From an uncultured Enterobacteriaceae bacterium (GTDB lineage: Bacteria; Pseudomonadota; Gammaproteobacteria; Burkholderiales; SG8-39), in assembly GCA_964552535.1 (NCBI GenBank), contig CAZKHE010000001.1, forward strand, positions 27,976-91,975: a stretch of DNA of 64,000 nt, read 5' to 3'. Shown here one piece after another: positions 48,066 to 64,000 of the stretch; position 1 is the first letter of the stretch; each line of letters begins with the position of its first letter. The notes beneath the pieces are model-generated. The model searched no databases and was not told the DNA's origin. It was given only the letters and a program-made list of their open reading frames with translations. Position numbers and translations under genes: made by a program.

Positions 48066-48108
48066 CGTCGTCTCCTCGTGGGTTGCGGTCAAAGGGCGAT
48101 CGGGCCGG

Positions 48109-48507
48109 TCATCGGGCGGCCGGTGGCCGCGCCGCCTCCTGCTCGAGCGCGCGGATGCTCTCGCGCAGTTCGGCGAGCGCCTTGTCGGCCCGGTCCGCGT
48201 TGGCCTTGGCCGCCGCGCGACGCGCGTCGACCTCGGCCTCCTCGAGCAGCCGCCGGGCACGGGCGTTGTCCTCGTCCTTGATCGCGGCCCGCGCCTCGCT
48301 GATCTTCGCGCGCGCCCGCTCCAGTTCCACGCTCGCCGTCGTGGCGGCGCCGGTGCTCTGCGCGTTGCGAAACTCCGTCTCGGTCACCGCAAGCTGCTCC
48401 TTGGGCGGTGGCACCGAGGCGCATGCGGCGAGCAGTGCGGTGCTGGCGGCGAGGCCAGCGAGTCCAACGGAACGGATGGCACGTCGATTAGAAAAGTTCC
48501 AATGCAT
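48109..48507 (-). CDS. DUF4398-like lipoprotein
   Basis: ATG at 48507. Lipobox LLAAC. Helical Ala/Arg/Glu-rich body paralogous to the N-terminus of the adjacent OmpA-family gene. Confidence 0.6.
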   Translation of the reverse strand: MHWNFSNRRAIRSVGLAGLAASTALLAACASVPPPKEQLAVTETEFRNAQSTGAATTASVELERARAKISEARAAIKDEDNARARRLLEEAEVDARRAAAKANADRADKALAELRESIRALEQEAARPPAAR

Positions 48508-48827
48508 GGCGAACCTTTCCTGCTGGTCAATGGGTTTCGGCCGCGGCCGGCGGGGCCGCAGAAGGGACGCAGCCGAGGGGGGAGACGCCGCCCGGCTTCT
48601 GCAGCAGAAAAAGCAAGATCGACGCCCGTCACTGCGATCGTGCGGACGCGACCCTGCATTCACGTGTGCAAAGGCCCCGCTACCGCAAACGACCGTTGGT
48701 ACCTTGAGTTCAGGACAACCGGAAGGAGGTCGCTATCGAGCGGATCGCCCGTCCGGAGGGTCGTCGGCGCGGGCCAGGGTGGGCTCTTCCTGCGCACCGC
48801 GTATGTGGCGTCGTCGCCGGCGTAACG

Positions 48828-49235
48828 TTGGTAGCGCCTCGCCGGGTTGAAGCTGACCGCCTGGAACCAGCGTCCCCACTTGTGCGAGCCGGGGAGGTGT
48901 CGCTCATCTTCGACGATCGCGCGATCATGGCGGACCGCATCCAGCGCCTGCGCCATCCCAAACTGTACGCGCAGATCCCCGCATCCAGGACTGTGCGACA
49001 GGTCTCCAACTTCGAACTGTTGCAGGCGGAGGGAGCCGGGGGCGAGCTCGAGGTCGGTTCGGTGTTCTTCATGTACCAGTACCGGGCTACGCTGGCCGTG
49101 CCCATCGAGCGGACTTTCGCCGGCCGCTACCGGCATCGGTTGCGGAGCGAAGGCGACGGCTTCCGGATCGTCTGGAAGAAGGCAATCCTGGCCAACTGTG
49201 ATGCGACCTTTGAACCCCTGTTTCTCTACTTCTGA
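48828..49235 (+). pseudogene. Orphan, probably N-terminally truncated ring-hydroxylating dioxygenase beta-subunit-like (SnoaL-fold) ORF
   Basis: The only start is a TTG. The sequence LIFDDRAIMADRIQRL...SRTVRQVSNFELL...FAGRYRHRLRSEGDGFRIVWKKAILAN matches the C-terminal three quarters of RHD beta subunits. The in-frame upstream sequence does not look like the missing N-terminus. No alpha subunit lies nearby. Confidence 0.4.
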
Positions 49236-49501
49236 GCGGGCAGGTCCCCGTCGTCACCGCATCCGATCAGGGAAGCCGCCGCCGCGCCGGCTGCGGGAAC
49301 GGATCGACGGGCTCGTCCCAAGCGGAGCGCTCCCGGCTTGACGAGCCGCCACTCGCCTCGGCCATCTGGCCGACCACGCCCGCTGCTGCGTTGCGTTACG
49401 TTTGCGGAGTTGCGGAGTACGCTGTATACGCGCGACCGGCCATGTCGGTCGCGCCGCTCAGGAAGGACCCGGCTCTCGCCGCACAGCAAGGGAGGCGTCA
49501 G

Positions 49502-51592
49502 ATGTCGAGCGGCAAACCGTTGCCCGGATTCGAGGACCGCGCCCCGCCCGACCGGTATTGCGACCTCATCCTGACCGGAGGCGTCACCAGCGCCATCGCC
49601 TACCCGGGCGCCATCTTCGCGCTCGCCACCGCGTATCGCTTCAACAGCATCGGCGGATCGTCCTCGGGCGCCGGGACCGCCGCGCTCGCCGCCGCCGCGG
49701 AGTACCGCCGCCGTCACGGCTCGCCGGAGGGCTTCCGTCTCCTCCTGGAGCGGACCGCCGAGGTGGCCGACGTGAAGGAGGACGGGAAGACCCTGCTCGA
49801 GTGGCTGTTCCAGCCGGCCGCGGACTGTGGGCGGCTGTTCGCTGCACTGGTGCCCGGCTTCGCCTCGCCGGTCAACAAGGGCAAATTGGTCTCGATGCAC
49901 GTGGCGAAGGTTTACGGCTCACGAGGCCTCGTACTCGCCATTGGCGCTACCGCGACTGCGGGGGCGCTTGCCCACGCCGTTCACGCCCTGCTCGGATGGC
50001 CTGCACCGACGCCAGGGGTACTGACCGGAGCCGCGTTCATGATCGCTTGGGCGCTGTTCGCCCTGTGGCTCGTGTACGTCGACGTGCGGCGCATGGTGAA
50101 CCGCGACTACGGTCTCTGCACCGGATACGAGCGCTCGCCGGGCGCCGCGCAGCCGCCGCTGACCGAGTGGCTGCACGCGCTCATCCAGGAGATCGCCGGA
50201 CGCCGCCCCGACCAAGCGCCCCTGACCTTTCACGACCTCGCCACGGCCCCGGGCTCGCCGCGGGACACGCTGGGCGATGCCAGCCCGCCGGGTGCGGTGT
50301 CGATCAACCTTCAGATGTACACCGCAAACCTGACCCACGGACGGCCGTACGTCTTTCCGCAGGAGCGAACGGGCTCCGCCGGCGCGCACGCGAACGCGCC
50401 GCCGGAGGCGGAGGCGGACGCGCTGTACTTCCGTCCGTGGGAGCTGCGGCGGCTGTTCCCCGCCGACGTGATCGAGCACATGAAGACCGATCCGGTCACC
50501 GGCGCGTCCAATCGCTATGTCGGCAGCGTCGTGCCCGACGAGCCGCGCCGCGAGCGCGCCTTCTGGGAGCACTGGTGGCCATCGTCATCGCCGCGCACCG
50601 CCGACGACGAAGCGGACAACACGCTGTGGCGCCTGCCGCGCGAGCACCTGCCGATCCTGGTCGCAGCGCGCATGAGCATCAGCTTCCCGGTGCTGTTCTC
50701 CGGGGTGCCGCTGTGGGCGATGGAACGAAAGAACCAGAGCCTCGACGCCGATGACGGCCAGCACAACAGGGTCTTCCGGCGTTGCGTCTTCTCCGACGGC
50801 AGCCTCTGCTCCAACTTTCCCATCCATCTCTTCGACAGCTGGCTGCCCGCGTGGCCGACCTTTGGCATCTCCCTGCAGGAGCGCGTCCCGGACCCCGCGA
50901 ATCCCCCGCCTCGTCAACGCCTCTGGAAACGGGCCGCGACGCGGGACGTGACCGTGACCCTGCCCGATGACCATCGCGCCGGCCGGCACAACCGCTGGAA
51001 CAATTTCGACTACGAGCCCGGTGCGAGCGCGCGCCTGTTCTCGTTCGTGAACGCCATGCTCTCGACCACGATGAACTGGAGCGACGCGACGCTCGCGCGC
51101 CTGCCCGGCGTGCGCGACCGTGTCGCGGAGGTCACCCTGGAGCCCGGGATCGGCGGCCTCAACATCCGCATGACGCCCGGGCAAATCCGGAAGCTTGCCG
51201 ACGGTGGCGCCGACGCCGGGGTGGAGCTGCTGAAGCGCTTCGCCGGGCGCGGCCGCACAAGGGCGGGCGAACTCGCCGACGGCTGGAACGAGCACCGCTG
51301 GGTGCGGTTCAACGTGCTGCGCGACAGCCTCACTGCCGGGCTCGCGGGTCTGACGTGGTCGGCCTCGCAGCGGCGTTACGCCAAGCCCATCCGCGAGCTC
51401 ATCCGCGAGGCGACGCGCGAGCCGCCCCTCGCCGGCGACGCCACATCGCAGATTCATGCTGCCCAGGCGGCGGCACTCGAGGCGGTGCTGAACGCACTGA
51501 TGCAGGCGGAGCGCGCGCTCACCCGTCCGACGGTGACCCAGCCGTATGCGCCATCGCCGCGGCCGGCGATGCGCGTGCGGCCGCCACTGTAG
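49502..51592 (+). CDS. Patatin-like phospholipase family protein (long form with hydrophobic insertion and large C-terminal extension)
   Basis: Preferred start is ATG 49502 (SD gggagg); alternatives are ATG 49442 and the track start 49391. Oxyanion region DLILTGGVTSAIAYPG. Nucleophile elbow GGSSSG (Ser codon 49661-49663). Catalytic Asp in FSDGSL (50795-50797). Confidence 0.8.
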   Translation: MSSGKPLPGFEDRAPPDRYCDLILTGGVTSAIAYPGAIFALATAYRFNSIGGSSSGAGTAALAAAAEYRRRHGSPEGFRLLLERTAEVADVKEDGKTLLEWLFQPAADCGRLFAALVPGFASPVNKGKLVSMHVAKVYGSRGLVLAIGATATAGALAHAVHALLGWPAPTPGVLTGAAFMIAWALFALWLVYVDVRRMVNRDYGLCTGYERSPGAAQPPLTEWLHALIQEIAGRRPDQAPLTFHDLATAPGSPRDTLGDASPPGAVSINLQMYTANLTHGRPYVFPQERTGSAGAHANAPPEAEADALYFRPWELRRLFPADVIEHMKTDPVTGASNRYVGSVVPDEPRRERAFWEHWWPSSSPRTADDEADNTLWRLPREHLPILVAARMSISFPVLFSGVPLWAMERKNQSLDADDGQHNRVFRRCVFSDGSLCSNFPIHLFDSWLPAWPTFGISLQERVPDPANPPPRQRLWKRAATRDVTVTLPDDHRAGRHNRWNNFDYEPGASARLFSFVNAMLSTTMNWSDATLARLPGVRDRVAEVTLEPGIGGLNIRMTPGQIRKLADGGADAGVELLKRFAGRGRTRAGELADGWNEHRWVRFNVLRDSLTAGLAGLTWSASQRRYAKPIRELIREATREPPLAGDATSQIHAAQAAALEAVLNALMQAERALTRPTVTQPYAPSPRPAMRVRPPL

Positions 51593-51622
51593 CGAACGTC
51601 GTCCTCCTCGAGGGAGACAGCC

Positions 51623-54600
51623 ATGCAGTTCGAGCTCCAGAACAAGTCGCGCAGCCTGCTCGGCGTGACGGACCTCACCCTGGCCGCCCCCATCAAGCGC
51701 GGACTCATCCCCGCGCTCGACTCGCGCAGCTATGAAAGCCGGCTGCGCGTGCTGCTCAGGACGCTCAGCACGCTGCGCGTGTCCTCGCTGGAAGCCGAGC
51801 CGACGCCGCTGATCGCCGACGCCGTCGACCGCATCCGCGCCATCCACTCGTTCCGCCTGGCCATCGTCGGCGAGGATCAGCGCCAGCTCCTGCTCGCGGT
51901 CGCCTTCGACGGCGGCTGGGAGCCCTACATGCGGCGCATCTGGCGCGATCTCGGGCCGCTGCTCGACGTCATCTTCTGCAACTGCGAGGGCTACCTCATC
52001 TCCCGCGAGCACGTGTTCGCCGAGTACGCGGGATGGGTGCGCCGCGCGCAGGTAGCCACGGAGTTCTTCTACAACGCGAGCCCGCTCACGGTGAGCGACC
52101 TGCATTACCTGCGCGAAGCGGAGCGTCGGCGTCGCGACTGCGGCGCGCCGCCCGCGGCGGTCGGGGACAAGGTCGAGCAGGCAATGCCGGCGCTGACCGC
52201 GCTCTATCGTCTGACGGATCTCTATCCGCCCGCGAGCGCCGGTATCGCGAGCCTGAGCGGTCCGGGTGACGGCGCGTGTCTGCTGCGTGCCGCGCATCAT
52301 CTCCTCCACGATGTCGCCGACGACCTGCGACGTACGGAACCGGCGTCGCGCAACGCACCGGCCGAGCGTGCGGCGCTCGCGTGGTTCAGGCAATCCGACG
52401 CGCAGCCGCCGAGGGAACCGTCCGCCGCCGTGAGCTGGGACCCCAGCCGCGCGCAGGGCGGCATCGTCGAGCCGTACGCCGGGGTGTCGCATGCCTGCCT
52501 GCTGCTCATCGAGTTCGCCGACGAGAAGGGCGCTGCGGCGTTCGTCGGCGACCACACGTCGGGCGTGCTGGGGGCCCTTGGAGCGGCCGACGGCACCGCC
52601 GCCAAGCCGTTCGTCAACGTCGGCTTCACCGCGCAAGGGCTGAAGGTCGCGGGCGTCCCGGCCGGCACGCTGGAGCAGTTTCCCTTCGAGTTCCGCGAGG
52701 GCATGGCCGCGCGGGCGAGCATCCTCGGCGACCTGCACTACAACCATCCGACGCGCTGGACGCTCCCTGAACGCAACTGGCCCGAACGCCCGAGCGACCC
52801 TGCGTCCCGGGTCGAGATGACCTGCGTCCACGCGATCGTGCAGCTCTCGTGCCGCAGCAAGCTCTCCCTCGATTGGGACGACTTCGCCGGCAACGACCGG
52901 CATCCGCTCCGCGCGTTCATCCGGAAGTTCCACGATGACCTGCACAAGGCGGGCGTCCGCATCCTCTCCGTGCAGGCCATGCAGCGCTTCTCAGAGGGGC
53001 CGGAGACCACGCCGCGCGGACACTTCGGCTTTCTCGACGGCATCAGCCAGCCGAGCCTCGAGGGGGGCACCGGCGCGCCGTGGGACCGGTTCAAGGTCGG
53101 CGATCTCTTTCTCGGCCACGAGAATTCGGTCGGCGATGAGCCGGTCACGGGACGGCTCTGGGACGACAGCACGTTCCTCGTCGTGCGCAAGCTCCGGCAG
53201 GACGTGGCCGCGCTCGACGACGCGGTCGCGGGGCTGGGCAGCGAGGCCGCGAAGCTCGCGAAGGCGAAGATGATGGGGCGCCGGCTGGACGGCGAAAATC
53301 TGGTGGATGGCCGCGCGGGCAACGACTTCGACTTCTCGCAGGATCCCGACGGCGGCAAGTGCCCGCTGCAATCCCACATCCGGCGCGCGAATCCGCGCGC
53401 GCTGCGCGACGACCTCGCGACGGTGCCGCGCATCGTCCGGCGCGGCATGTCGTACGGGCCGCGCCGGGTCGAGCCGGGCCAGGCGAGCGAGCGCGGCGTC
53501 GTCTTCATGGCCTACTGCGCCTCCATCGCCGAGCAGTTCGAAGTCATCCAGGCCTGGCTCAGCGGCGGCAACAGCACCGGGGACGGCAGCTACTCCGGGC
53601 TGCGCGACCCGTTCATCGGCGTGCCGCAGCCCGGCGACCCGCACACCTTCGTCTATCGCGACGACAGGGGCAGGGAGGTGCGCCTCCCGCTCGATCCCGA
53701 CCGGCCCTTCGTCAAGCTGGAGTGGGGAGCGTATCTCTTCGTGCCCTCGATCCGCGCGCTGGAGGAGCTGAAGGCGATTGCGAGCGAAGCACCCGGCGAG
53801 GCGTCGGACGGGCGGAGGCAGGGCCAGGCGACGGACAAGCGCGAGAAGGCGCGCGAGCGCGAACGCACCGCGCAGGCGATGAAGGGCGCGGCGGTGATCG
53901 GCCGCCTGCAACTGCTGGAGCAGTTGCAGGGTCCCGAGGCGGCACGCACGCAATGGAAGATCGCTCTGGAGGACGTGAGCGCGCGCATCAGCGGCATGAG
54001 CCAGTTCATCTGGACCGCGATCCGCGAGCACTACGGCGGGACGCTGCGCACACCCTACGGCGTGCTGGTCGGCAGCCGTGCGCTGGTGATGCAAGTCTTC
54101 GACAACCGGGGCGATCTCTACTCGGTGCAGGGCTATGCCGACCGCATGAAGCAGTCGTTCGGCGAGATCTACCTCGGCATGGATCGCCTCGCGTACGCGC
54201 GCAGCGTGGCCGGCAACGTGAACGAAGCCCTCATGGCGGTCACGGAGCACGAGGCCTTCGAGTCCGCCCGGCACGTGACCGGCGACGTCGTGCGGCGCCT
54301 CGTGCCCGCCGGCGACGAGGCGACCATCGAGGTGAAGGACCTGGTCGACGAGGTGCTGGCAGCCCTCAGCGCGAAATGGTTCGGAATCCCCGATCCCGGA
54401 GGATCGTACGTCGTCTCCGGCGGCTGGCACTGGAGGGGCCCCAATGAGCTTCCCACGTGCCCCGGCCACTTCCACTCCCCGTCGCGCTACATGTTCCAGC
54501 CCGATCCCGGCACCGAGGCCAGCGAGGCCGGGCAGCGTCACGGCCAGGCGCTGTACGCAAGCGTGAGGGCGTTTGTCGACGCGCATCGCGGCGCGCGTAC

Positions 54601-55180
54601 GAGGCCGCAGGCCCCGCTCGGCAAGGCGCTGTTCGAGGCCATTCCCGGCGACTCGCCCGACGAGCGAAGCCTCCTCGCCAGCACGCTGATCGGCGTGATG
54701 ATGGGCTTCCTGCCGACGGTGGACGGCAACCTGCGCGGGCTCTTCTACGAGTGGATGAACGACCGCTCGCTGTGGGACCACGAGGGTGCGTATCTCGCGG
54801 CGGACGGCCACGGCGCCCATGCGCGCGCCCACCGCGCCCTGCTGGGGCCCCTGCGCCGGACGCTGCAGCTGCGGCCGGTGCCCGAGGTCGTCTGGCGCAT
54901 CGCGCTGAAGCAGCACCGGCTCGGGACGGTGACCATCGAGGAAGGCGAGACGGTCGTGGTCGGCATCGTGTCGGCGATGCAGGAGGCGCGCCTCGACGAC
55001 GTCGACGACGTGTATCCGGTGTTCGGCGGCAACCGCGGCGCGAAGCCGCATCCGCTGCACGCCTGCCCGGGCTACGCGATGGCGATGGGCGTCATGCTCG
55101 GGGTGGTGGCGGGACTGCTGGAGGCGGCACGGCCGCGGCCCACGCTGTCGCCGTTCGCGTTGCGGATGGCGCGCCGCTAG
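51623..55180 (+). CDS. 1185-aa multidomain haem protein: unknown N-terminal domain + DyP-type peroxidase + P450-like (Cys-ligated) C-terminal domain
   Basis: SD gggaga precedes the ATG. DyP motifs: QGGIVEPY, GHFGFLDGISQP (Asp codon 53036-53038), VVRKLRQDV, CPLQSHIRRANPR (proximal His codon 53375-53377), RIVRRGMSYG, VVFMAYCASIAEQFEVIQ. The C-terminal ~390 aa show a P450-like K-helix/meander (LRRTLQLRPVPEVVWRIALKQHRLG..IEEGETVVV) and a Cys-pocket FGGNRGAKPHPLHACPGYAMAMG (Cys codon 55064-55066). Confidence 0.75.
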   Translation: MQFELQNKSRSLLGVTDLTLAAPIKRGLIPALDSRSYESRLRVLLRTLSTLRVSSLEAEPTPLIADAVDRIRAIHSFRLAIVGEDQRQLLLAVAFDGGWEPYMRRIWRDLGPLLDVIFCNCEGYLISREHVFAEYAGWVRRAQVATEFFYNASPLTVSDLHYLREAERRRRDCGAPPAAVGDKVEQAMPALTALYRLTDLYPPASAGIASLSGPGDGACLLRAAHHLLHDVADDLRRTEPASRNAPAERAALAWFRQSDAQPPREPSAAVSWDPSRAQGGIVEPYAGVSHACLLLIEFADEKGAAAFVGDHTSGVLGALGAADGTAAKPFVNVGFTAQGLKVAGVPAGTLEQFPFEFREGMAARASILGDLHYNHPTRWTLPERNWPERPSDPASRVEMTCVHAIVQLSCRSKLSLDWDDFAGNDRHPLRAFIRKFHDDLHKAGVRILSVQAMQRFSEGPETTPRGHFGFLDGISQPSLEGGTGAPWDRFKVGDLFLGHENSVGDEPVTGRLWDDSTFLVVRKLRQDVAALDDAVAGLGSEAAKLAKAKMMGRRLDGENLVDGRAGNDFDFSQDPDGGKCPLQSHIRRANPRALRDDLATVPRIVRRGMSYGPRRVEPGQASERGVVFMAYCASIAEQFEVIQAWLSGGNSTGDGSYSGLRDPFIGVPQPGDPHTFVYRDDRGREVRLPLDPDRPFVKLEWGAYLFVPSIRALEELKAIASEAPGEASDGRRQGQATDKREKARERERTAQAMKGAAVIGRLQLLEQLQGPEAARTQWKIALEDVSARISGMSQFIWTAIREHYGGTLRTPYGVLVGSRALVMQVFDNRGDLYSVQGYADRMKQSFGEIYLGMDRLAYARSVAGNVNEALMAVTEHEAFESARHVTGDVVRRLVPAGDEATIEVKDLVDEVLAALSAKWFGIPDPGGSYVVSGGWHWRGPNELPTCPGHFHSPSRYMFQPDPGTEASEAGQRHGQALYASVRAFVDAHRGARTRPQAPLGKALFEAIPGDSPDERSLLASTLIGVMMGFLPTVDGNLRGLFYEWMNDRSLWDHEGAYLAADGHGAHARAHRALLGPLRRTLQLRPVPEVVWRIALKQHRLGTVTIEEGETVVVGIVSAMQEARLDDVDDVYPVFGGNRGAKPHPLHACPGYAMAMGVMLGVVAGLLEAARPRPTLSPFALRMARR

Positions 55181-58100
55181 CGCGGCTGGAACTGCGCGCG
55201 CAACCGCGCGGCCTGCGCCAGGTGCCAGTGCATGCGCATCGACTCGAACGCCGCGCTCGCGCGTTCGACACCTGCCGCCGCGCCGTCGCGGTCGCCGCGC
55301 GCCAGCGCAATCTCCGCCGCGGCGAGATCGTTGCACGCCGTCTCGTGCGGCGAGCTGCGCGTGCGCGCGACCCGCTCGGCCCGTCGCAGGTGACGCTCGG
55401 CGGCGCGCCAGTCGCCCGCCGCCGCCTGCAGCCGCGCCATCGCGCGGCACGCCATGGCGCCGCCGAACCAGTCGCGCTTGCGCACGCGGCGCAGCGCCCG
55501 CGCCGCCTGGCGCCGCGCCTCGGCGGGTTGCCCGGCGGTCGCCAGCGCCTCGGCCAGCCAGCCGTGCACGAGGGACACGAACAGATTCTTGTCGCGCGAC
55601 TCGAGCCACGTCGCGGCCTCGGCCATGTCCTGCAGCAGCCGCGGATCGCGCGTGCCGTGCCACGCGGCGTAGGCGCCGAGGCCGCGGCTCATCGCGAACA
55701 GGTAGAGGCTGCGCACGCGCTCGGCGATCGCCTGCGCCGCGGCCGAGTCCTGGCGCGCCGCCTCCCAGCGGCCCTGCCAGAGGTTCACGCCGCTGCGCCA
55801 GCACAGCACCGACCCCTCGACCTCGTGCCCGCGCCACGGCAGGCACGCGAGCGCGTCGTCGAAGCAGGCCATCGCCTCGGGGAAGCGCCCGAGGTCGCCG
55901 AGCACGCTCGCCTTGCACGCGAGCGCATAGGCGAGGCCCGGCGAGGGGCGCGTCTCGGTCTCGCGGTCGCGGCGCAGGCGCGTGGTGTCGTCGAGCAGCG
56001 CGAGCGCGCCGCCGTAGTCGGCGGCCGCCGCCAGCGCCTGGCCCAGTGTCGCGCGCGCCTGCGCGGCGAGCCGCTGGTCGCCCAGCACGGTCGCCGCACG
56101 CACCGCCAGCTCGCAGTGCTCCACCGCGGCGCGCGACTCGCCGAGCGCGTAGTTCACGTACGCGAGCCAGTACTCCGCATACGCTTCGCCGGCGGCATCG
56201 CCGTGCTCGCGCGCCCGCGCCACCGCCCGATGGAAGATCGCGAGCTCCGCGCGCGACGGATCGAACACGGTGGCGAGGCCGAGGCGGCGAACGATCGAGC
56301 GCCACGCCTGATAGCGCTCGGCGGAGGCGGCCAGGCGGTCGAGCATGCCGAGCGCGGCGCCGTACTGCGCCTTGGCGGCGTCGATCGACGAGGCGGCCAT
56401 CGCCTTGTCGCCGGCGGTCGCCGCGTACCGCGTGGCCTCGGCGTACTCGCCCGCGCCGGCGAAGTGATAGGCGAGCGCCTCGCACGCATCCGCCTCGTCG
56501 CCGGCGCGCGCGTCCGCCTGGATCAGCTTCGCGATCTCGCGATGCATCGCGCGGCGCTTCTGCAGGCCCACCGCGCCGTACACCACGTCGCGCGTGATGC
56601 CGTGCTTGAAGCGCAGCGTCCCGTTCGCCTCGCCGGCGAACACCAGATCCTGCGCCGCCAGCGCGCGCACCCACAGGTGATCCTCGCCGCAGCCGGTGAG
56701 CCGCTCGAGCAGCCACGTGGGCACGACGTTGCCGATGACGGCCGCGGCGCTCAGCACGTGCGCCTGATCGCGCGGCAGCCGCGCGACGCGCGACTCGATC
56801 AGCGTCTCCAGCCACGCCGGCCCGCCGCGCACCGGGTCCAGGCCCGCGCTGGGACCGGCGCGCGCCACGGCGTGGCACAGCTCCTCGATGAACAGCGGAT
56901 TGCCGCCCGAGTAGCGGCGGATCTCGCCGGCCACGAAGGGATCGGCGGCGGGAAGCAGTTCCCCGATGGTGGCGTCCGCCTCGGCGGCGGAGAACGGCGC
57001 GAGCGCGAGATGGTCGGCGCCGGTGAGCTCGACGTCCCCGAGCTCCGGCGGACGCGTCGCCACCAGCAGCAGGACCGGGACGTTGCCGAGATCGCGGATC
57101 GCGTACACCACCTGCCGCGTGGCGTCGTCGGCCCAGTGCCAGTCGTCGATGAACAGCACCTGCGGCCGCAGCCGCGCCAGCGCCGCGAACACCTCGCGCA
57201 CCGCCGCGAGCGTCTGTTCCGGGGCGCTGCGGCGCGGCTCGGCCGTCCCTGGCGCTTCCGGATGCACGGAGAGCGCCGTCATCAGCTCGGTGCGGTAAGC
57301 GAGCAGCCCGGCGTCGATCTCCCCCAGCCCCGCCTCGATGGCCTGCGCGGCCGCGGCCGGGCTCATGCCGGGCACCAGCCCGAAGCGCGCGCGCAGCATC
57401 TGCAGGAAGGGCTGCAGCGGCTCGGCGCTCAGGTCGCCGCCGCAGTAGCCGCGCGACACCGTGCAAACCGGGGCGGCGAAGCGCTGCAGGAACTCCTCGG
57501 CGAGGCGGGTCTTGCCCACGCCCGGCGGTGCGGACACGGCAACGAAGCGCGCCCGCCCCGCGATCGCCCCGTCGAGCGCGCGCTGCAGCCACGCGAGCTC
57601 CTCGTGCCGGCCCACGAAGGGCACCAGCCCGCGCCGCGCGTGCGCCTCGAAGCGGGTGCGCAGCGGCATGCGCCCGAGAATGCGGTGGATGGCGAGCGGC
57701 TCGGCGCGGCCCTTCAGCGTCACGAAGCGGCGCTGCGCGGTCTCGAAGAGGTGGCTGCCCGGCCCGAGCGTCTCCTCGCTGACAAGGATCTCGTCGGCCT
57801 CCGCGACGTCGCTCAGGTGCTTGGCGATGCCGGGACCCGGCCCGAAGATCTCGACGCGGCCGGCCACGTTGTCGCCCTCGCGCGCGAGGACCACGCCGGA
57901 GTGGATGCCGGAGTGGACGCTGAGGTCGGGCGCGCCCTGCTGCGCATAGCGGATGCGCAGCAGGCGCACGGCGGCGTGGACGGCGAGCGCCGCCTCGACG
58001 GCACGGCGGCCGTCGTGCTCGGTCGCGTGCGGAAAGCCGAACACGGCCTGCAGGCCGTCGCCCTGGAACTGGTTGATCGCGCCGCCATGCCTGGCGACTG

Positions 58101-58266
58101 CGTCGCGGAACGCGGTGCGCACCTCGTTCAGCATCTCCGCGTACGTCTCGGCCTCCATCGCCCCCGAGAGGTGGGTGGAGTCCGAGAGGTCGGTGAACAG
58201 GATGGTCAGGTGACGGCGCTGCTCGGCATCGAACAGCTCGTCTTTCGGATCCGGATGGGCGGGCAT
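55177..58266 (-). CDS. Class-III nucleotide-cyclase-like domain + AAA/STAND P-loop ATPase + TPR-repeat protein
   Basis: ATG at 58266. Cyclase-like N-domain (LTILFTDLSDST, FQGDGLQAVFG, GIHSGVV). Walker A SAPPGVGKT, Walker B VLFIDDWHWAD. The long C-terminal region is Ala/Leu-rich TPR-like repeats. No HTH was recognised. Confidence 0.85.
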   Translation of the reverse strand: MPAHPDPKDELFDAEQRRHLTILFTDLSDSTHLSGAMEAETYAEMLNEVRTAFRDAVARHGGAINQFQGDGLQAVFGFPHATEHDGRRAVEAALAVHAAVRLLRIRYAQQGAPDLSVHSGIHSGVVLAREGDNVAGRVEIFGPGPGIAKHLSDVAEADEILVSEETLGPGSHLFETAQRRFVTLKGRAEPLAIHRILGRMPLRTRFEAHARRGLVPFVGRHEELAWLQRALDGAIAGRARFVAVSAPPGVGKTRLAEEFLQRFAAPVCTVSRGYCGGDLSAEPLQPFLQMLRARFGLVPGMSPAAAAQAIEAGLGEIDAGLLAYRTELMTALSVHPEAPGTAEPRRSAPEQTLAAVREVFAALARLRPQVLFIDDWHWADDATRQVVYAIRDLGNVPVLLLVATRPPELGDVELTGADHLALAPFSAAEADATIGELLPAADPFVAGEIRRYSGGNPLFIEELCHAVARAGPSAGLDPVRGGPAWLETLIESRVARLPRDQAHVLSAAAVIGNVVPTWLLERLTGCGEDHLWVRALAAQDLVFAGEANGTLRFKHGITRDVVYGAVGLQKRRAMHREIAKLIQADARAGDEADACEALAYHFAGAGEYAEATRYAATAGDKAMAASSIDAAKAQYGAALGMLDRLAASAERYQAWRSIVRRLGLATVFDPSRAELAIFHRAVARAREHGDAAGEAYAEYWLAYVNYALGESRAAVEHCELAVRAATVLGDQRLAAQARATLGQALAAAADYGGALALLDDTTRLRRDRETETRPSPGLAYALACKASVLGDLGRFPEAMACFDDALACLPWRGHEVEGSVLCWRSGVNLWQGRWEAARQDSAAAQAIAERVRSLYLFAMSRGLGAYAAWHGTRDPRLLQDMAEAATWLESRDKNLFVSLVHGWLAEALATAGQPAEARRQAARALRRVRKRDWFGGAMACRAMARLQAAAGDWRAAERHLRRAERVARTRSSPHETACNDLAAAEIALARGDRDGAAAGVERASAAFESMRMHWHLAQAARLRAQFQPR

Positions 58267-58403
58267 CGGTCGATCCACCTGAGGGGCGCGGGGAGATTGT
58301 GTGCCCCTCCCGGGGGCTGCGCAACAGCCGGGGACGGCCCGCCGGTGGAACGCCGGTGCGGGACTTGCTGCACCATCACCCTCTCCGCGACCCACGGAGC
58401 ACC

Positions 58404-59261
58404 ATGAAGCCCACCCGCAATCCCGACTCCGCTCCCGGCGACTGGTATGTCGACACGGCCTGCATCGATTGCGGCGCCGCCCGGCACGTCGCGCCCGATC
58501 TGATCGTCTGGCAGGGCGGCAAGAGCGTGTTCGCGCGGCAGCCCGCCACCGAGGAGGAGCGCATCGCGGCGTGGCGCGCCGTGCTGGTCTGCCCGACGGC
58601 GTCGGTGCGCAGCGAGATCAAGCAGGCGCGGCCGCCCGGCACGATCTTCCCGCAGCCGCTGACCGAGAACGTCTGGCGGTGCGGCTACAACGCCCGGTCG
58701 TCGTTCGGCGCGCACTCGTACTTCGTCGCGCGCCCGGGCAGCAACCTGCTCGTGGATTCGCCGCGCCATGCCGCGGACCTCGTGCACTGGTTCGAGTCGC
58801 GGGGCGGGATCGCGCACATCCTCCTGTCCCACCAGGACGACGTCGCCGACGCGGGCAAGTACGCGCAGCACTTCGGCGCGCGGGTCTGGATCCATCGCGA
58901 CGACAGCGCGGCTGCGGCCTACGCCACCGACGTCCTCGAAGGTACGTCCGCGCGTGCCGTCGCGGACGGCGTCATCGCCATTCCGCTGCCGGGACACACC
59001 CGCGGCAGCGTCGCCTACCTGTTCGACGACCGCGTGCTGTTCACCGGTGATTCACTCGCGTGGAGCGCGCGCGAGCAGGACCTCGTGGCGTTCCGCGATG
59101 CGTGCTGGTACTCGTGGACGACGCTGACCGCCTCGCTCGGGAAGCTTCTGGACTATCGGTTCGAATGGGTGCTGCCGGGCCACGGCTGGCCGGTGCAGCT
59201 GCCGGCGGCGGAGATGCATGCGCGGCTGCGGGCGCTGGTCGAGCGGATGGCGCGCGATTAG
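58404..59261 (+). CDS. Ferredoxin-like N-terminal module fused to an MBL-fold metallo-hydrolase
   Basis: ATG at 58404. The N-terminal WYVDTACIDCGAARHVAPDL ... VLVCPTASV resembles a single-cluster ferredoxin. MBL motif LLSHQDDVAD, later LPGHTRGS and LPGHG. Confidence 0.7.
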   Translation: MKPTRNPDSAPGDWYVDTACIDCGAARHVAPDLIVWQGGKSVFARQPATEEERIAAWRAVLVCPTASVRSEIKQARPPGTIFPQPLTENVWRCGYNARSSFGAHSYFVARPGSNLLVDSPRHAADLVHWFESRGGIAHILLSHQDDVADAGKYAQHFGARVWIHRDDSAAAAYATDVLEGTSARAVADGVIAIPLPGHTRGSVAYLFDDRVLFTGDSLAWSAREQDLVAFRDACWYSWTTLTASLGKLLDYRFEWVLPGHGWPVQLPAAEMHARLRALVERMARD

Positions 59262-59325
59262 CAGGTGCGCGGCGGACGCGCCGGCGCAGGGCATTCGGAA
59301 TCGTCGGCCGCGCGGGCGGCGCGCT

Positions 59326-60753
59326 TCACGCCGAGCCGGCGGACGGAATCCGCAACCGCGCCGCCGGATCCCCGAACACCATGTAGTTGAGCGCGTCGGT
59401 GCGCCACAGCCAGTGGTCGACCAGCTTGCGCTGCGTCAGCGCATCCCAGGCGAGGCGGCCGCGGCGCTCGCGATCGAAGTAGCTCGCCAGGAGCTGATTG
59501 CCGACGCGCAGCCGGCGCCGCATGTCCTCCATCGCAAGCCCGGCGGGCTGCACGCCGAGGAGCTGGTTCACCGCGTGCACGAACGGCTGCAGCCGCTCAT
59601 GCCAGCGGCCGGCGATCAGCGCATCGGGCTGGTCGGCGAATCCGTGCAGGAATGCGGTATCCAGATGCCCCACGTACGCGATCGGTCCGCGCGGATGGGC
59701 AAGCAGCGCGCGCGGCAGCGCGGCCACGAAGTCCCCCTCGGCGCAGCGCTTCGGCATGCCTTCGAGCCAGTGCGCGAAGTCGCTCTCCGCCGGGGTGCCG
59801 TAGCCGAAGCAGGCGAACTGGAAGAACACCGCGCCGTCGAGGAACGGCGCGTCGGCCGGCACGTCGTCCGCCGAGAACAGCGTGTCGAGCGCGCGCGGGC
59901 GATAGTCGGTGCAGCAGATGGCGCCGTTGTAGCGCGCCTGGCGTACCGGGTCCGCGGCCGGCGCGCATACGCCGTGGCTCGCCGTGTACACGAGCGCCGG
60001 CCGGCCGCCGTGCAGCGCCTCCACCAGCGCGTCCTTCCCGGCATCGTCGCCGGCGAGCAGCGTCGTGGCGAATCCCAGCGTGCCGCGCGCGTGCTGCGCC
60101 AGCGGCTCGATCATGTGATGCCGGCTGTACCAGGTCGCGTCGGTCCAGACGCCGGTGTCGGGTCCGAACAGCACGACGCGCCGCTCGACGGCCGGCTCCG
60201 GCGCGGACTCCAGGCGCACCACCTTCCGCGCGTAGGTCTCGTACGCTGCGATCTCGTCGAACGCGACGCGCCCGACGCTCGCCACGGACGCCAGCATCGA
60301 CTGCAGGCGGAACGGCAGGTGCGCCGGTTCGCCCGCGAGCAGCAGGTATTGCGGCACCTGCTTGCCATCGAGCTCGCGCGCGAAGTACTCGTCCTGCAGC
60401 CAGTCGGCCCACGCGTCCTCGGCGGCGCCGTCGATGGTCAGCACGGCGTCGTCAGCCGATGCGCCGCGCTGACGCATCAGCGGCGCCAGCGCCTCGACGA
60501 TCTCCTCGCGACGCGGATCGTCGCGCGCCACGACGAGCGCCCAGCCCACCGCGTGCGGATCGCCGACATCCGCCACCCGGCGCGCGACCTCGCCGCGGAA
60601 GACGATCCCGCGCTCGGCGGCATCGGTCTGCGCGCGGACGGACCCGGCGGCGCCGCGCATGGCCGCGAGCACCGTGCGCGCGGTCGCGGCTTCGTCGATC
60701 CGCGCGTAAGCCGGTTCGCCGTCGAGCGTGCGGCCCAGCGGGTAGAGCGTCAT
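59326..60753 (-). CDS. Cytoplasmic clan-CD cysteine peptidase, gingipain (C25)-like caspase fold
   Basis: ATG at 60753 overlaps the upstream stop (ATGA). QYLLLAGEPAHLPF is typical of the C25 N-terminal subdomain. His-Gly (ALVYTASHG, His codon 59974-59976) and Cys (FFQFACFGYG, Cys codon 59809-59811) lie in caspase-like order and spacing. No signal peptide. Confidence 0.6.
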   Translation of the reverse strand: MTLYPLGRTLDGEPAYARIDEAATARTVLAAMRGAAGSVRAQTDAAERGIVFRGEVARRVADVGDPHAVGWALVVARDDPRREEIVEALAPLMRQRGASADDAVLTIDGAAEDAWADWLQDEYFARELDGKQVPQYLLLAGEPAHLPFRLQSMLASVASVGRVAFDEIAAYETYARKVVRLESAPEPAVERRVVLFGPDTGVWTDATWYSRHHMIEPLAQHARGTLGFATTLLAGDDAGKDALVEALHGGRPALVYTASHGVCAPAADPVRQARYNGAICCTDYRPRALDTLFSADDVPADAPFLDGAVFFQFACFGYGTPAESDFAHWLEGMPKRCAEGDFVAALPRALLAHPRGPIAYVGHLDTAFLHGFADQPDALIAGRWHERLQPFVHAVNQLLGVQPAGLAMEDMRRRLRVGNQLLASYFDRERRGRLAWDALTQRKLVDHWLWRTDALNYMVFGDPAARLRIPSAGSA

Positions 60754-63700
60754 GCGCCGGCGGGCGAATCGGCGGGGGCCACGCCCAGACGCCAACGTTC
60801 GAGCTCGTCGGGCGGGCGGTTCGCGACCGTGCCGAACCCCGGTTCGAGATACGCGGCATAGCGGCTCTCGTTGTCGCGATCCAGCGCCCAGTACAGGTCC
60901 TTCAGGGCCTTCTCGTCGTCCTCGCTGCACTCGACCGCGGAGAAGGTGTTTCTCTGCACGATGACGCCGCACACGAACGCCGTGCAGCCCGCGAGCGCCT
61001 CGGGATGCTGCGCGGCCACCGCCTCCACCCTCGGGAGCAGATCCGCCCGCAGCGCATCCATCGCCGTCGGCAGGTAGTCGCGATACGTCGCCCACGGCTG
61101 GGCGCGGACGTCCGCTACCGTGGCATCGACCCGATCGGGCACGTCCGCGACGAGCGGGAACCACGGCTGGGCATCCGGCGGCGACCAGCGGGCGCGGAGG
61201 TCCTCCAGCATCGCGAGCACCGCGCCGGTCTGTCCCGCGGCGAAATCCGGCGCAAGATAGCTGGCGTTCTGCCGGTCCCACAGATGGCGCAGCAGCCCGG
61301 CCATCATGGGGACCGCGAACGGCACCGCCGCGGCGTGCAGCTCGGCGCGGTGCACGAGCTTGCGCACCACGATCTCGGCGTAGCGCGTCGTCTCGATCAT
61401 GTCGGAGATGCGGTTGGGGTGCCCCGCGACCACGGCGTTCCAGGCGACGTCCTCGACGGACGCCTCCTCGTCGCGCAGCGTGGCGCGGCCGTACGTGTCC
61501 GCGGCCGCCTGCTGCGCGCCCATGATCGCCTGCATCAGGGCAGCCATGGAGCCGTCGTCCTGCCGGCCCTCCGGCATGCGGACCCGCATCGTCACGCCGC
61601 GCAGCGCCGACTCCTGCGCAGCCAGGTGCTCGCGGGCGGCCTGCAGGTAGCCGTTCCATGCAGCATTGCCGTCGCCGGCGGCCGCGTTGATGTGGCGGAT
61701 CGTGTCGGTCAGCAGCGCCACCAGGCCCTCGCCGGTCTCACGCCCGGCGCGGTGGTTCGCCCGCACGAAGTGCAGGAGCGCGCGCGTGCCGGGATGACGC
61801 AGGCGATCGGCCAGCGCGATCGCGCGGTCCAGCGCGGCGGCATCCGCGGGTTCATCCGGGTCGCGGCAGGCGGACATGAGCTCGATCACGCCGAACGCAG
61901 CGTCGAGACGCGGATGCTCGCCCTGACGGGCGACCGCCACCGCCGCGCGCCACGCCTCGTCGGCGGACGCCTCGGTCCGGTCCGGCGCGAAGATGCCGTC
62001 GAGCAGGTCGGCAGCGGCATCGTCGCGCAGGGGCGCATCGCCGGGCACGAGCCGGTGATCCGGATCGCCGAGCAGGATCGCCGTCGCCCACACCGCGGCG
62101 CGCGTGCCGCTCTCCGCGACCGCGCGGCGTGCACAGCGCAGCGCTTCGCCGACGGGCCCCGCGCCCGCCTCGTCGTAGAACGCGATCGCCAGCTCCACCG
62201 CCGCGCGATCGGGCACCGGCGTCGCATGCGCCACGACCGCGGGCGCGCCGAGCTCGGCGAACGCGTGCGCGAGCCCGCGGCTCAGGCCAGCGCCGAGATA
62301 GCGCGTCTGACCGAGATTGCAGGTGTTCAGGTACACGAACGGATAGCTGCGCTGCGGGCTCGCCTCCAGGTCGTTCACCACCAGCCGGCGTCCGCCGGGC
62401 AGGACGAGCCACTCGGTGCCCGCGCCCGCCTCCCCGTGCGCGGAGACGTGCAGCACGTCGACGTACGACAGGCGATCGGTGAAGAACGATGCGGCGAGAC
62501 GAGGCGGGTCGATCGGCGGTGCATCGAAGCCCGCACGCGCGAGCGTGGCGCCGATCTCCTCCTGCTCGAACGCGGCGAGGTCGAGCGGATCGTAGCCTTC
62601 CGCGACAGGCGCGGCGACCACCAGCGCGCGTTGCATCCGCGGCACCGCGGCGCGCGTGTCGAGCGCGGCGGCCAGCTGCGCCAGCGACGTGAAGCGCGCG
62701 ATGACGCGCGTGACGCCGAGCCAGCCGCCGTGACCGTCGCCGCGCAGCAGCTCGTAGGGCACGGTGTCGAGCCGCGAGCGCGAGTCGGGGGCGAGCAGCA
62801 GCGTGTCGTGCGCGTCGATCGCCTGCCGCACGGAAGCGGGCAACGCCTCGAACGCGGCCCGGCCGGCCTGCTCGAGTGCGGCGTCGGCGCGCAGGCGATC
62901 GCGTGCCGGGGCGCGCAACGCGGCGCCCGCGGCCTCCTCGAGCGCGCGCAGGGCATCGAGCGCCGCGGCTGGCGCCCGTTCGACGCCCACTGCGCCGTCG
63001 CCGCCGAGGACCGTGATGATCGCCAACTCGTCGCCCAGGCCCTGCAGGACCACGGCGACGGCATCGGGCCGCTCCGTCATCGCACGGCGCAGCCGGCCGA
63101 GCGAGTCGGCGGCGAACACCTCGGGATCGACCGCTTCGTCGCCGCTCCTGGCCGGCAGGATCGCCTGCGGCGGCGGCAGCACCGCGCTGCGCAGCAGATC
63201 GATCAACGCGCTGACGCGCACACGCGCGCGCGGATCCTCCCAGTCCGGGCCCTGGGTGAGCAGGAGCCGGATCGCCGACTCGATCGAACGATCGAGTAGC
63301 GCGCGCGAGCGCGGCTCGGCGAGCCACGCTGGATCCGCGGCGAGCGTGCCCCCGAGCAGCACGTCGAACATCTCCAGGAAGCGTACGGCGTCCGCGGCGT
63401 CGCGGGCGGCGGCAATCTCGAGCAGCGCCCCCATGGCGACGAGCTGGATGCTCGCCGCGCGCGCGGCCATCGCGTCGCGCACCGCCTGCATGGCCACCCG
63501 TTCCGCGGCGTCGAGGTCGCCCGCAGCGTGACGCGCGTAGGCCACGCCGATGCGCGCCGCGACCGGGAACAGGGGCGCGAACGCCGCGAGATGCTCCGAC
63601 TGCCGGCGCAGCCCGGCGCGCACCACCTCCACGGCGCGCGGAGCGGTCAGCCCTGCGGGCACCTCGCCCTCCGCCACGGCACGCCGATTGCGCTCCACGG

Positions 63701-64000
63701 CCGCGACGAGCGCCTCCGCCTGCTGCATGGCCTCCTCCGGCGGCAGCATCGCGACGATGGGGACGAAGTCGTAAGGGGAGAGATCGGCGGGCGGGCCGAT
63801 CTGCGCGATCGCCTCCACGGCCGTGCGCGCTGCCGCCCCGCGCTGCGCCGGCGCGGCCCCGGCGGCCGCGGTGCGCGCGAACCCGATCGCGGACGCCGCC
63901 AGCAGCGCATGCGCTTCCAGCACGGCGAGGCTGGCTTCCACGCTGCCGTCGGCCGCACCCGGCCCGGACCTGGCGAGCGGATCGCGCAGCACGGCGCTCC
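60750..64000 (-). CDS. CHAT-domain protein (caspase-fold peptidase) with helical-repeat N- and C-terminal regions; 5' end probably outside the window
   Basis: The frame is still open at nt 64000. The CHAT core spans about 62058-63065 and carries VLHVSAHGE (His codon 62436-62438) and FVYLNTCNLG (Cys codon 62319-62321), followed by PAVVAHATPVPD. The flanks are Ala/Leu-rich helical (TPR-like). Confidence 0.8.
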   Translation of the reverse strand, partial: SAVLRDPLARSGPGAADGSVEASLAVLEAHALLAASAIGFARTAAAGAAPAQRGAAARTAVEAIAQIGPPADLSPYDFVPIVAMLPPEEAMQQAEALVAAVERNRRAVAEGEVPAGLTAPRAVEVVRAGLRRQSEHLAAFAPLFPVAARIGVAYARHAAGDLDAAERVAMQAVRDAMAARAASIQLVAMGALLEIAAARDAADAVRFLEMFDVLLGGTLAADPAWLAEPRSRALLDRSIESAIRLLLTQGPDWEDPRARVRVSALIDLLRSAVLPPPQAILPARSGDEAVDPEVFAADSLGRLRRAMTERPDAVAVVLQGLGDELAIITVLGGDGAVGVERAPAAALDALRALEEAAGAALRAPARDRLRADAALEQAGRAAFEALPASVRQAIDAHDTLLLAPDSRSRLDTVPYELLRGDGHGGWLGVTRVIARFTSLAQLAAALDTRAAVPRMQRALVVAAPVAEGYDPLDLAAFEQEEIGATLARAGFDAPPIDPPRLAASFFTDRLSYVDVLHVSAHGEAGAGTEWLVLPGGRRLVVNDLEASPQRSYPFVYLNTCNLGQTRYLGAGLSRGLAHAFAELGAPAVVAHATPVPDRAAVELAIAFYDEAGAGPVGEALRCARRAVAESGTRAAVWATAILLGDPDHRLVPGDAPLRDDAAADLLDGIFAPDRTEASADEAWRAAVAVARQGEHPRLDAAFGVIELMSACRDPDEPADAAALDRAIALADRLRHPGTRALLHFVRANHRAGRETGEGLVALLTDTIRHINAAAGDGNAAWNGYLQAAREHLAAQESALRGVTMRVRMPEGRQDDGSMAALMQAIMGAQQAAADTYGRATLRDEEASVEDVAWNAVVAGHPNRISDMIETTRYAEIVVRKLVHRAELHAAAVPFAVPMMAGLLRHLWDRQNASYLAPDFAAGQTGAVLAMLEDLRARWSPPDAQPWFPLVADVPDRVDATVADVRAQPWATYRDYLPTAMDALRADLLPRVEAVAAQHPEALAGCTAFVCGVIVQRNTFSAVECSEDDEKALKDLYWALDRDNESRYAAYLEPGFGTVANRPPDELERWRLGVAPADSPAGA

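Follow-up and report, generated by a model that had tools for sequence, protein, structure and literature searches.

We analysed a stretch of 64,000 nucleotides (the window; contig CAZKHE010000001.1 of assembly GCA_964552535.1) in which six consecutive genes, here named G1–G6, occupy 49.4–64 kb, and we conclude from comparison with related loci that this region very probably consists of two unrelated conserved modules lying side by side, with a single bystander gene (G4) between them. Module A (G1–G3) encodes a predicted patatin-like acyl hydrolase, a fusion of a dye-decolourising peroxidase (DyP) with a P450-fold domain, and a class III nucleotidyl cyclase built into a signal transduction ATPase with numerous domains (STAND); module C (G6–G5) encodes two caspase-fold peptidases. 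As judged from its genes and their neighbourhoods, module A is probably an undescribed lipid-oxidation pathway controlled by a cyclic nucleotide monophosphate (cNMP), and module C is most likely a two-step proteolytic activation cascade of the conflict or cell-death type, an assignment made by association only. Taken as a whole, this explanation (that is, juxtaposed modules, one for lipid oxidation and the other a protease cascade) has in our estimation about an even chance of being correct.

Two modules in one region

The window has a GC content of 70–75%, and long open reading frames (ORFs) are consequently abundant in all frames; real genes were picked by frame analysis of the GC content at third codon positions (GC3), which yielded exactly six genes in 49.4–64 kb. 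Domains were assigned by profile searches against Pfam and TIGR models. An earlier, sequence-only reading of this DNA had listed the same six genes, and profile matches and homologue alignments agree with it in that all are present and have intact catalytic motifs. That reading placed them in three transcription units; we count four (G1–G2, G3, G4 and G6–G5).

To follow G2 across genomes, we scanned one genome per GTDB species (185,579 genomes) with a profile and obtained 246 relatives. A sample of 81 loci (80 of the 246 loci and that of Bradyrhizobium sp. 170, with up to 10 kb of flanking DNA on each side) was then searched for all six window proteins with tblastn at a cut-off of 1e-5, and a further 83 loci were sampled for their G5 homologues. 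Homologues of G4, G5 and G6 occur in none of the 81 other G2 loci, and G1, G2, G3 and G4 in none of the 83 loci holding G5 homologues. The nearest relative of window positions 59336–64000, a metagenomic contig (L166) with 83% nucleotide identity, covers G5 and G6; its similarity to the window breaks off precisely at the 3′ end of G5 (window position 59336), beyond which it carries GST and TctC genes and not G4–G1. It is because of these three observations (the absence of G4–G6 at G2 loci, the absence of G1–G4 at G5 loci and the breakpoint in L166) that we divide the region into modules. What does travel together are subsets of the six: a full-length G3 orthologue is found no more than 1.5 kb from G2 in 62 of the 63 loci that have at least 4.5 kb of sequence downstream of G2, which bears out the tie that had been drawn between the STAND cyclase and the haem oxidase, and a gene with a CHAT domain neighbours the G5 homologue in 56 of 83 loci.

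The sequence-only reading had proposed that all six genes act together as one conflict or programmed-death system, with the STAND protein and its tetratricopeptide repeats (TPR) as sensor, the proteases and the lipase as executioners and the oxidase as the enzyme that produces or removes a lipid signal. Although the six genes are contiguous, none of them is housekeeping, their catalytic motifs are all intact and all the domain types are also encountered in known defence systems, G2 and G3 were never found with G4, G5 or G6, nor G5 with G1–G4, and L166 shows G6–G5 beside unrelated genes with a break in homology at the end of G5; the four transcription units, moreover, are of mixed orientation. 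Comparative genomics thus finds the genes scattered and never co-localised as a set of six, an outcome that the reading had itself named as its refutation, and on the available sampling we regard the model as already refuted and hardly credible. A PADLOC run on the six proteins gave no system-level match to a known defence system. The broader suggestion of a defence role is not supported for module A (on the PADLOC results, the housekeeping flanks and the Crp-type receptor described below); for the protease pair it stays plausible, though by association only. In this region, the contiguity of ‘exotic’ genes is no evidence for a common system.

G4 (58404–59261, + strand; 285 amino acids) encodes a 4Fe-4S ferredoxin-like domain (Fer4_13, E = 1.1e-10) fused to a metallo-beta-lactamase-fold domain (Lactamase_B, E = 2.3e-8). 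Because it was found with neither module in any locus examined and lies outside the block of similarity to L166, we take it, on this distribution, to be a bystander that belongs to neither module.

The DyP/P450-fold fusion protein

G2 (51623–55180, + strand; 1,185 amino acids), which together with G3 makes up the core of module A, can be divided into three parts. Residues 1–275 (51623–52447, + strand) form an N-terminal alpha/beta domain with no assigned family; over residues 1–290 the AlphaFold2 model has a predicted local distance difference test score (pLDDT) of 62.5, and Foldseek found no PDB match better than E = 0.35. Residues ~276–715 (52448–53767, + strand) match the DyP models Dyp_perox_C (E = 2.3e-8; 34.4 bits, above the 20-bit cut-off) and TIGR01413 (E = 1.8e-28; 99.8 bits, just below the 100.5-bit cut-off), and the DyP residues D472 (in GxxDG), H585 and R603/R606/R607 are invariant among 24 homologues with 42–63% identity. 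By these motifs and family models, this part is assigned to the DyP-type peroxidases.

The remainder (residues ~735–1185; 53825–55177, + strand) is a divergent P450-fold domain. Its assignment as a P450 failed at the level of sequence, with no Pfam match and a profile search against PDB sequences that returned weak matches, nearly all to P450s (E = 0.07–2); structure alone settled the fold. The AlphaFold2 model of this part (pLDDT 84.6, predicted TM-score 0.85) has 1,647 Foldseek matches in the PDB at E ≤ 1e-3, of which the best 50, with TM-scores of 0.53–0.61, are without exception P450s (BM3, CYP51 and CYP204A3 among them), and on this model the P450 fold is confirmed. A loop of the form FGGxR...HACPG, with C1148 preceded by H1146 at −2 and followed by G1150 at +2, is invariant in the 24 homologues.

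A search with the G2 protein returned 218 proteins at E ≤ 1e-5, and among the best 120 each covers at least 71% of the query; at a cut-off of E ≤ 1e-3, the P450-fold domain family comprises 926 representative clusters, and in the best 150 matches the domain sits mainly in DyP-containing architectures. No gene for a P450 redox partner is conserved beside G2 in the neighbourhoods of the G2 loci, and G2 itself has no secretion signal. The loci are spread over Alpha-, Beta- and Gammaproteobacteria, with one Vicinamibacterales genome, and their hosts include the soil and rhizosphere genera Bradyrhizobium, Variovorax, Rhizobacter, Xylophilus and Sphingomonas.

A STAND-type cyclase as the near-constant partner

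G3 (55177–58260, − strand; 1,027 amino acids) combines a class III nucleotidyl-cyclase domain (~57700–58227, − strand; Guanylate_cyc, E = 7e-16), an AAA_16 P-loop NTPase (~57073–57621, − strand; E = 1.2e-21) and a C-terminal TPR array (~55180–56460, − strand; TPR_12). In the window, G2 and G3 are convergent and their stop codons overlap in the palindrome CTAG (55177–55180). Among the 62 loci with both genes, 59 are convergent and 3 co-directional, and the identities of G2 and G3 to the window copies co-vary (Spearman 0.85).

Walker A (GxGKT) and the DD motif of Walker B are invariant in 55 of 55 orthologues and, together with the repeat-type sensor, place G3 among the STAND NTPases by sequence. 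In the cyclase domain, the metal-binding Asp motifs FTD and GD align with those of Pseudomonas aeruginosa CyaB (3r5g) and are kept in 54 and 55 of the 55 orthologues, respectively, while Gln replaces the substrate-defining Lys in 47, including the window copy. The transition-state residues are less constant, with Asn present in 46 of the orthologues and Arg in 29.

An acyl hydrolase in three forms

G1 (49502–51592, + strand, with an alternative TTG start at 49391; ~696 amino acids from the ATG at 49502, where conservation among orthologues begins) has a patatin domain (Pfam Patatin, E = 2.3e-9; 38.2 bits, above the 27.7-bit cut-off) with an inserted hydrophobic hairpin, followed by a C-terminal region of ~330 amino acids whose fold is unassigned. 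All 14 orthologues compared keep the GGxxS oxyanion motif, the serine of GxSxG and the aspartate of DG without change, and on these motifs G1 is a predicted patatin-like acyl hydrolase. A patatin of this type lies directly upstream of G2 in 12 of the 65 loci with enough upstream DNA, all of them in the clade nearest the window.

Elsewhere in the family the hydrolase is of a different kind. In 33 loci a gene for an SGNH/GDSL-like protein of ~300 amino acids stands between G2 and G3, and in 55 of 256 family proteins (P0274, P0251, P0260 and others) an SGNH-like domain is fused to the C terminus of the G2 protein. Conserved blocks for the GDS, GxND and H motifs are present in these SGNH-like proteins, their Pfam GDSL matches are below threshold, and profile searches of the PDB gave four matches, three to GDSL-family enzymes (E = 0.005–0.35) and one to LAE5 (E = 1.4); the SGNH assignment is therefore weak but consistent. 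Finally, P0356 (1,529 amino acids) has a canonical Patatin domain fused to the N terminus of the DyP/P450 protein. Both kinds of fusion are of the Rosetta-stone type. By sequence, a predicted acyl hydrolase thus joins the G2–G3 pair in three non-homologous forms, and the association of lipase, haem oxidase and cyclase noticed in the sequence-only reading proves to be a recurrent one.

Crp-type regulators and genomic context

Genes for Crp-type factors (cNMP_binding plus HTH_Crp_2 domains) lie beside module A in 32 loci, and 27 of 28 have an intact phosphate-binding cassette (FGE...R[ST]A); LuxR/GerE genes lie beside the G2–G3 pair in 17 loci. In 14 of 79 loci, a site that matches TGTGA-N6-TCACA in at least nine of ten positions was found 83–125 bp upstream of where the operon starts, as against ~0.4 expected by chance given that just 27 such sites occur in 1.57 Mb of locus DNA. 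By locus and position, these Crp boxes are L001 7763, L005 7748, L006 7740, L032 1042, L039 1694, L041 3885, L044/L049 9881, L051 9900, L052 4334, L053 9877, L056 9892, L057 9894 and L080 9889. Additional boxes were seen close to the start of G3 or crp in L020, L048 and L072, and downstream of crp in L080.

The surroundings of module A are ordinary. The 145 nearest non-module genes around G2 loci in 80 genomes are housekeeping or metabolic (including SAICAR synthetase, glutamate-cysteine ligase, aldolase, phosphofructokinase, DctP and thioredoxin genes), and PADLOC gave no system-level match among the 145 flanking proteins, with few and generic matches. Within a genus (Bradyrhizobium or Rhodoblastus, for example) the flanks are conserved, and no transporter or further catabolic enzyme is conserved with the module in these neighbourhoods. 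The locus of Bradyrhizobium sp. 170 (L001; CP064703.1), in which module A is co-directional, carries defence-type genes and a group II intron reverse transcriptase (2779–5852 and 23108–23534), and is the only defence-island-like setting among the 81 other G2 loci.

A model for module A

Starting from the observed linkage, domain identities, catalytic residues, hydrolase fusions, and Crp genes and boxes, we tentatively suggest the following mechanism, to which we assign somewhat less than an even chance. G1, associated with the membrane, would free an acyl chain from a lipid, and G2, a cytoplasmic enzyme with two haems, would oxidise and rearrange it. The DyP domain and then the partner-less P450-fold domain may act in sequence, possibly by hydroperoxide formation followed by rearrangement, with hydroperoxide chemistry like that of fungal Ppo/linoleate diol synthases or of CYP74- or CYP8-type P450s. 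The TPR/STAND part of G3 would bind a ligand, perhaps the lipid product or substrate, and NTP-dependent oligomerisation would join the class III cyclase domains so that a cyclic nucleotide is made; G3 would in this respect be a switch of the MalT-like STAND kind whose output is a cyclic nucleotide instead of a helix–turn–helix (HTH) domain. A Crp-family cNMP-binding factor, whose gene adjoins the module in many genomes and is absent from the window, would then switch the G1–G2 operon on. G3 is itself part of the operon in the three Bradyrhizobium loci with co-directional genes, and positive feedback could result. What we infer is which class of substrate is used, by what chemistry, which ligand is bound and in which direction regulation runs; as to the substrate, the hydrophobic hairpin in G1 and the lack of a secretion signal in G2 suggest action on the cell’s own membrane.

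A number of observations weigh against this model. Neither a Crp nor a LuxR homologue is encoded in the 64-kb window, no Crp box lies upstream of the window G1, and a search of upstream regions found no conserved operator or palindrome in the betaproteobacterial clade, so that the regulatory step is extrapolated from other members of the family. In the window G3, Gly and His replace the transition-state Asn and Arg (VNxAxR motif), and judged by these residues the protein may be a poor or atypical cyclase. The C-terminal domain of G2 has no match to Pfam p450 (PF00067), lacks ExxR (the positions hold R..Q in the PDB profile alignment) and has an unusually long Cys loop, with the conserved Phe 14 residues before the Cys as compared with 7 in P450s, and for these reasons haem binding by this domain is no more than putative. 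To our knowledge, proteobacterial membranes are without polyunsaturated acyl chains, and an oxylipin-type substrate is not obvious. Literature searches found no paper on the DyP–P450 fusion or on its pairing with a cyclase/STAND protein. In Bradyrhizobium sp. 170, module A lies beside HEPN_AbiU2, a CAP12-PCTIR TIR gene, Rap1a and a group II intron.

The Gly/His variant of the cyclase is a trait of the patatin-linked betaproteobacterial clade (8 of 55 orthologues, including those of L004 and L008–L013). We considered whether it goes with the loss of a neighbouring Crp gene and rejected this, as five of the eight loci keep Crp, together with LuxR genes, next door; for this reason we do not conclude that the cyclase is dead.

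The combination of a cyclase with a patatin lipase could also be explained by an anti-phage system of the Pycsar/CBASS type, in which G3 senses phage and the cyclic nucleotide activates the lipase and the oxidase, so that the membrane is damaged and the infection aborted. The G3 cyclase domain indeed matches ten PADLOC PycC models, if weakly (best E = 1.3e-13), patatins are the effector class to which CapV belongs, STAND plus TPR is the architecture of Avs proteins, and the distribution of the module is patchy and accessory, with 246 relatives in 185,579 species genomes; the defence genes beside the module in Bradyrhizobium sp. 170 fit as well. However, G1 and G2 have no PADLOC match, no Pfam cNMP-sensing domain is found in G1, and the SGNH-like alternative of ~300 amino acids leaves no room for one, whereas the cNMP receptor that does lie nearby is a transcription factor with its boxes at the operon promoter. 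With immediate neighbours in 80 genomes that are housekeeping rather than defence genes, and flanks that are conserved within genera such as Bradyrhizobium and Rhodoblastus, we consider an anti-phage role very unlikely. A catabolic or detoxifying role, in which the esterase or lipase de-esterifies an exogenous compound (for example an ester of plant or soil origin, a lipid hydroperoxide or a lignin-derived aromatic), DyP/P450 degrades the product and G3 senses the substrate, would suit the soil and rhizosphere hosts and the best-known activities of the two haem folds (dyes and lignin-type aromatics for DyP peroxidases, hydroxylation for P450s), and Crp boxes with adjoining Crp and LuxR genes are equally well suited to inducible catabolism. 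Yet neither a transporter nor a further catabolic enzyme nor a redox partner is conserved with the module, and the hairpin of G1 and the lack of a secretion signal in G2 point to the cell’s own membrane; we hold this role to be quite unlikely, and favour cNMP-controlled lipid oxidation.

A more specific form of the lipid-oxidation model is that module A constitutes a lipid-mediator circuit, in which the lipase and the DyP–P450 fusion turn a membrane acyl chain into an oxidised lipid that the STAND cyclase senses directly and relays as a cNMP to Crp. This form is unlikely as matters stand, but if true, the circuit would give bacteria an equivalent of eukaryotic oxylipin/eicosanoid-to-cAMP signalling, in more than 240 soil and rhizosphere species. 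If the lipid-oxidation reading of module A holds, it would introduce a new family of natural two-haem fusion enzymes (926 clusters, 246 species genomes) that comes with a substrate hypothesis, by virtue of the three-way hydrolase link, and with a dedicated second-messenger regulator, and it would open bacterial oxylipin-like chemistry, as well as the ligand specificity of a STAND cyclase, to direct tests in tractable organisms such as Bradyrhizobium and Variovorax. G2 may also be of interest for biocatalysis, as a reductase-free P450-fold domain fused to a peroxidase.

The protease pair of module C

G6 (60750 to past 64000, − strand) and G5 (59326–60753, − strand; 475 amino acids) overlap as ATGA at 60750–60753, where the stop codon of G6 meets the start codon of G5, and from this arrangement we read them as translationally coupled. 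G5, identical in sequence to P0121, belongs to a family of more than 700 members of ~470 amino acids. On the basis of the dyad motifs SHG (H260) and FQFACxGYGTP (C315), which are invariant in 17 diverse homologues (mean column identity 68%), it is assigned to the clan-CD (gingipain/caspase-like) cysteine peptidases. Its matches to Pfam Peptidase_C25 are sub-threshold only (E = 0.008–0.009; 15.7–15.9 bits for a 23-bit cut-off) and cover profile positions 289–374 of 374; G5 is therefore not a C25 gingipain proper and is best treated as a separate clan-CD family. The full-length G6 protein (P0377) has 1,274 amino acids, the first 192 of which are encoded past the end of the window, and contains a CHAT domain (residues 570–837; Pfam CHAT, E = 2.7e-21; 76.7 bits, above the 24-bit cut-off) flanked by helical regions.

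The two caspase-fold peptidases had been noticed in the sequence-only reading, and their pairing is upheld by the ATGA overlap in the window and by the CHAT gene that accompanies the G5 homologue in other loci, the N-terminal parts of these CHAT proteins varying (TPR, CHASE2, CpXC). Full-length G6 homologues stand next to G5 homologues in L089, L091, L135, L146 and L166; in L166 (917–4749) the G6 homologue appears as a pair of overlapping ORFs (584 and 698 amino acids), which could reflect a frameshift, a pseudogene or an assembly error. PADLOC has no model that matches G5 or G6, and literature searches brought up nothing relevant on the G5/CHAT pair.

Other recurrent neighbours at G5 loci are a subtilase, a C14 caspase, TIR-WD40, trypsin-nSTAND1-WD40 with Trypco1, TCAD7-CHAT and a metallophosphatase. 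Such genes are building blocks of the NTP-dependent conflict systems of Kaur et al. 2020, as that work is cited in PMC8195603. It is by this company that the pair is most likely a cascade in which proteolysis activates in two steps; its conflict role, plausible as it is, is guilt by association, which counts against our explanation of the region. The pair might instead serve in housekeeping or development (that is, protein maturation or turnover), in the manner of HetF-type CHAT proteins in cyanobacteria, and the ordinary neighbours in the window and in L166, the existence of HetF as a CHAT protein outside defence and the lack of any known defence model for G5 or G6 are in keeping with this. 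Given that the neighbours elsewhere are of the conflict-system type and that the G5 family is patchy across very distant lineages, we nevertheless judge a housekeeping or developmental role to be somewhat unlikely, and prefer the activation cascade. The protease pair adds a widespread, uncharacterised clan-CD family with a constant CHAT partner and bears on the wiring of caspase-like cascades in prokaryotes.

In L106, L110, L113, L114, L116, L121–L123 and L127, a G5-type gene, often tandemly duplicated, follows a gene for an S8 subtilase of ~760 amino acids, and several of these metagenomic loci have further conserved genes upstream. This suggests a larger multi-protease cassette.

Upstream flank of the region

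Just upstream of module A lies what is left of a gene for the beta subunit of a ring-hydroxylating dioxygenase, truncated at its N terminus (48828–49232, + strand; Ring_hydroxyl_B, E = 1.3e-18, profile positions 41–140 of 144), which had been described as an orphan in the sequence-only reading and is real, as is the stretch richer in A/T before the cluster: GC content dips to 0.666 at 48.5–49.5 kb, the minimum of the neighbourhood. No frame has a GC3 above 0.75 at 48.5–49.4 kb, which leaves ~1 kb of weak coding signal, and the remnant looks like a decayed gene at a point of rearrangement. In agreement with the earlier impression that no tRNA or integrase bounds the region, scans found no tRNA in the 64-kb window, no Rfam family in 47.5–64 kb and, in the window genes scanned at 36–49 kb, no domain of a mobile element.

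Further upstream, two adjacent DUF4398 genes occupy 47178–48663 (− strand), one fused to OmpA (47178–48080) and one alone (48112–48663). They are preceded by a GH15 glucoamylase/trehalase-like gene (40416–43094) and an alpha-amylase-family gene (45458–47209), which are ordinary genes of carbohydrate metabolism.

Comparison with known systems

The peptidases of module C have relatives of known kinds. G6 resembles TPR-CHAT (Csx29 of the type III-E Craspase) in being a large CHAT protease with helical repeat regions, and G5 homologues, like the CHAT/caspase modules of NTP-dependent conflict systems, occur alongside TIR, STAND, trypsin and caspase genes. Unlike Csx29, G6 has its CHAT domain in a central rather than a C-terminal position, and its constant partner is a clan-CD peptidase of ~470 amino acids for which we found no description. 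Neither a Cas7-11/gRAMP gene nor any other cas gene is among the genes called in 58–64 kb or in L166 (no dedicated array search was made), and with no adjacent cas gene and no PADLOC match G6 was not assigned to the type III-E Craspases.

Within module A, the order of class III cyclase, AAA_16 P-loop and helical repeats in G3 is that of Rv0386, TIGR03903 and MalT-like proteins. Rv0386 of Mycobacterium tuberculosis is reported to have Gln at the substrate-defining Lys position, as does G3. G3 differs from the Rv0386/TIGR03903 proteins in that it has neither an HTH nor a kinase domain, is the dedicated partner of a DyP/P450 gene and, in the window copy, is without the catalytic Asn and Arg; its partial match to TIGR03903 (TOMM kinase/cyclase fusion) reaches 209 bits, far below the 706-bit cut-off. 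It matches no Avs model in PADLOC, and its N-terminal domain is a cyclase, which places it outside Avs/AVAST. With Pycsar and CBASS-CapV, module A shares a nucleotide cyclase encoded beside a patatin lipase, and it has the weak PycC matches, but its cyclase is located inside a STAND/TPR protein, its lipase has no detectable nucleotide sensor and no CapV match, its receptor is a Crp-type transcription factor and its flanks are housekeeping genes. In the search for membership of Pycsar, the cyclase matches were weak and no PADLOC effector matched G1, G2, G4, G5 or G6; for CBASS, none of the six proteins matched a CD-NTase or CapV, and the cyclase is of class III. Module A was accordingly assigned to neither system.

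Closer parallels lie among fatty-acid oxygenases. Fungal PpoA and 7,8-linoleate diol synthase (7,8-LDS) likewise carry a haem peroxidase-type domain N-terminal to a P450 fold in one polypeptide that has no reductase partner, and a lipase-freed fatty acid as substrate and an oxidised lipid as signal are what we propose for module A as well. The N-terminal domain of the fungal Ppo enzymes has the animal-peroxidase/cyclooxygenase fold, whereas that of G2 is a dimeric alpha/beta-barrel of the DyP type and not An_peroxidase; membership of the Ppo/linoleate diol synthase family was therefore rejected, and G2 is an analogue of Ppo. G2 has, in addition, an extra N-terminal domain of 275 amino acids and a P450 part with neither ExxR nor a Pfam p450 match; it is bacterial, linked to a STAND cyclase and of predicted activity. 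In the oleate diol synthase pathway of P. aeruginosa (PA2077/PA2078), free monounsaturated fatty acid is converted to hydroperoxy and dihydroxy oxylipins. Like module A as proposed, this pathway is bacterial, uses two haem enzymes and has a dedicated regulator that senses the products, but the enzymes are periplasmic and of the di-haem cytochrome c peroxidase family, the sensor is of the LysR type, and there is no homology to G2 or G3. The combination of lipase, DyP–P450 and STAND cyclase appears to be undescribed among related kinds that are known (that is, haem-fusion fatty-acid oxygenases and cNMP–Crp circuits), and by analogy module A would be most similar in function to the fungal peroxidase–P450 fusions and, among bacteria, to the oleate diol synthase signalling of Pseudomonas.

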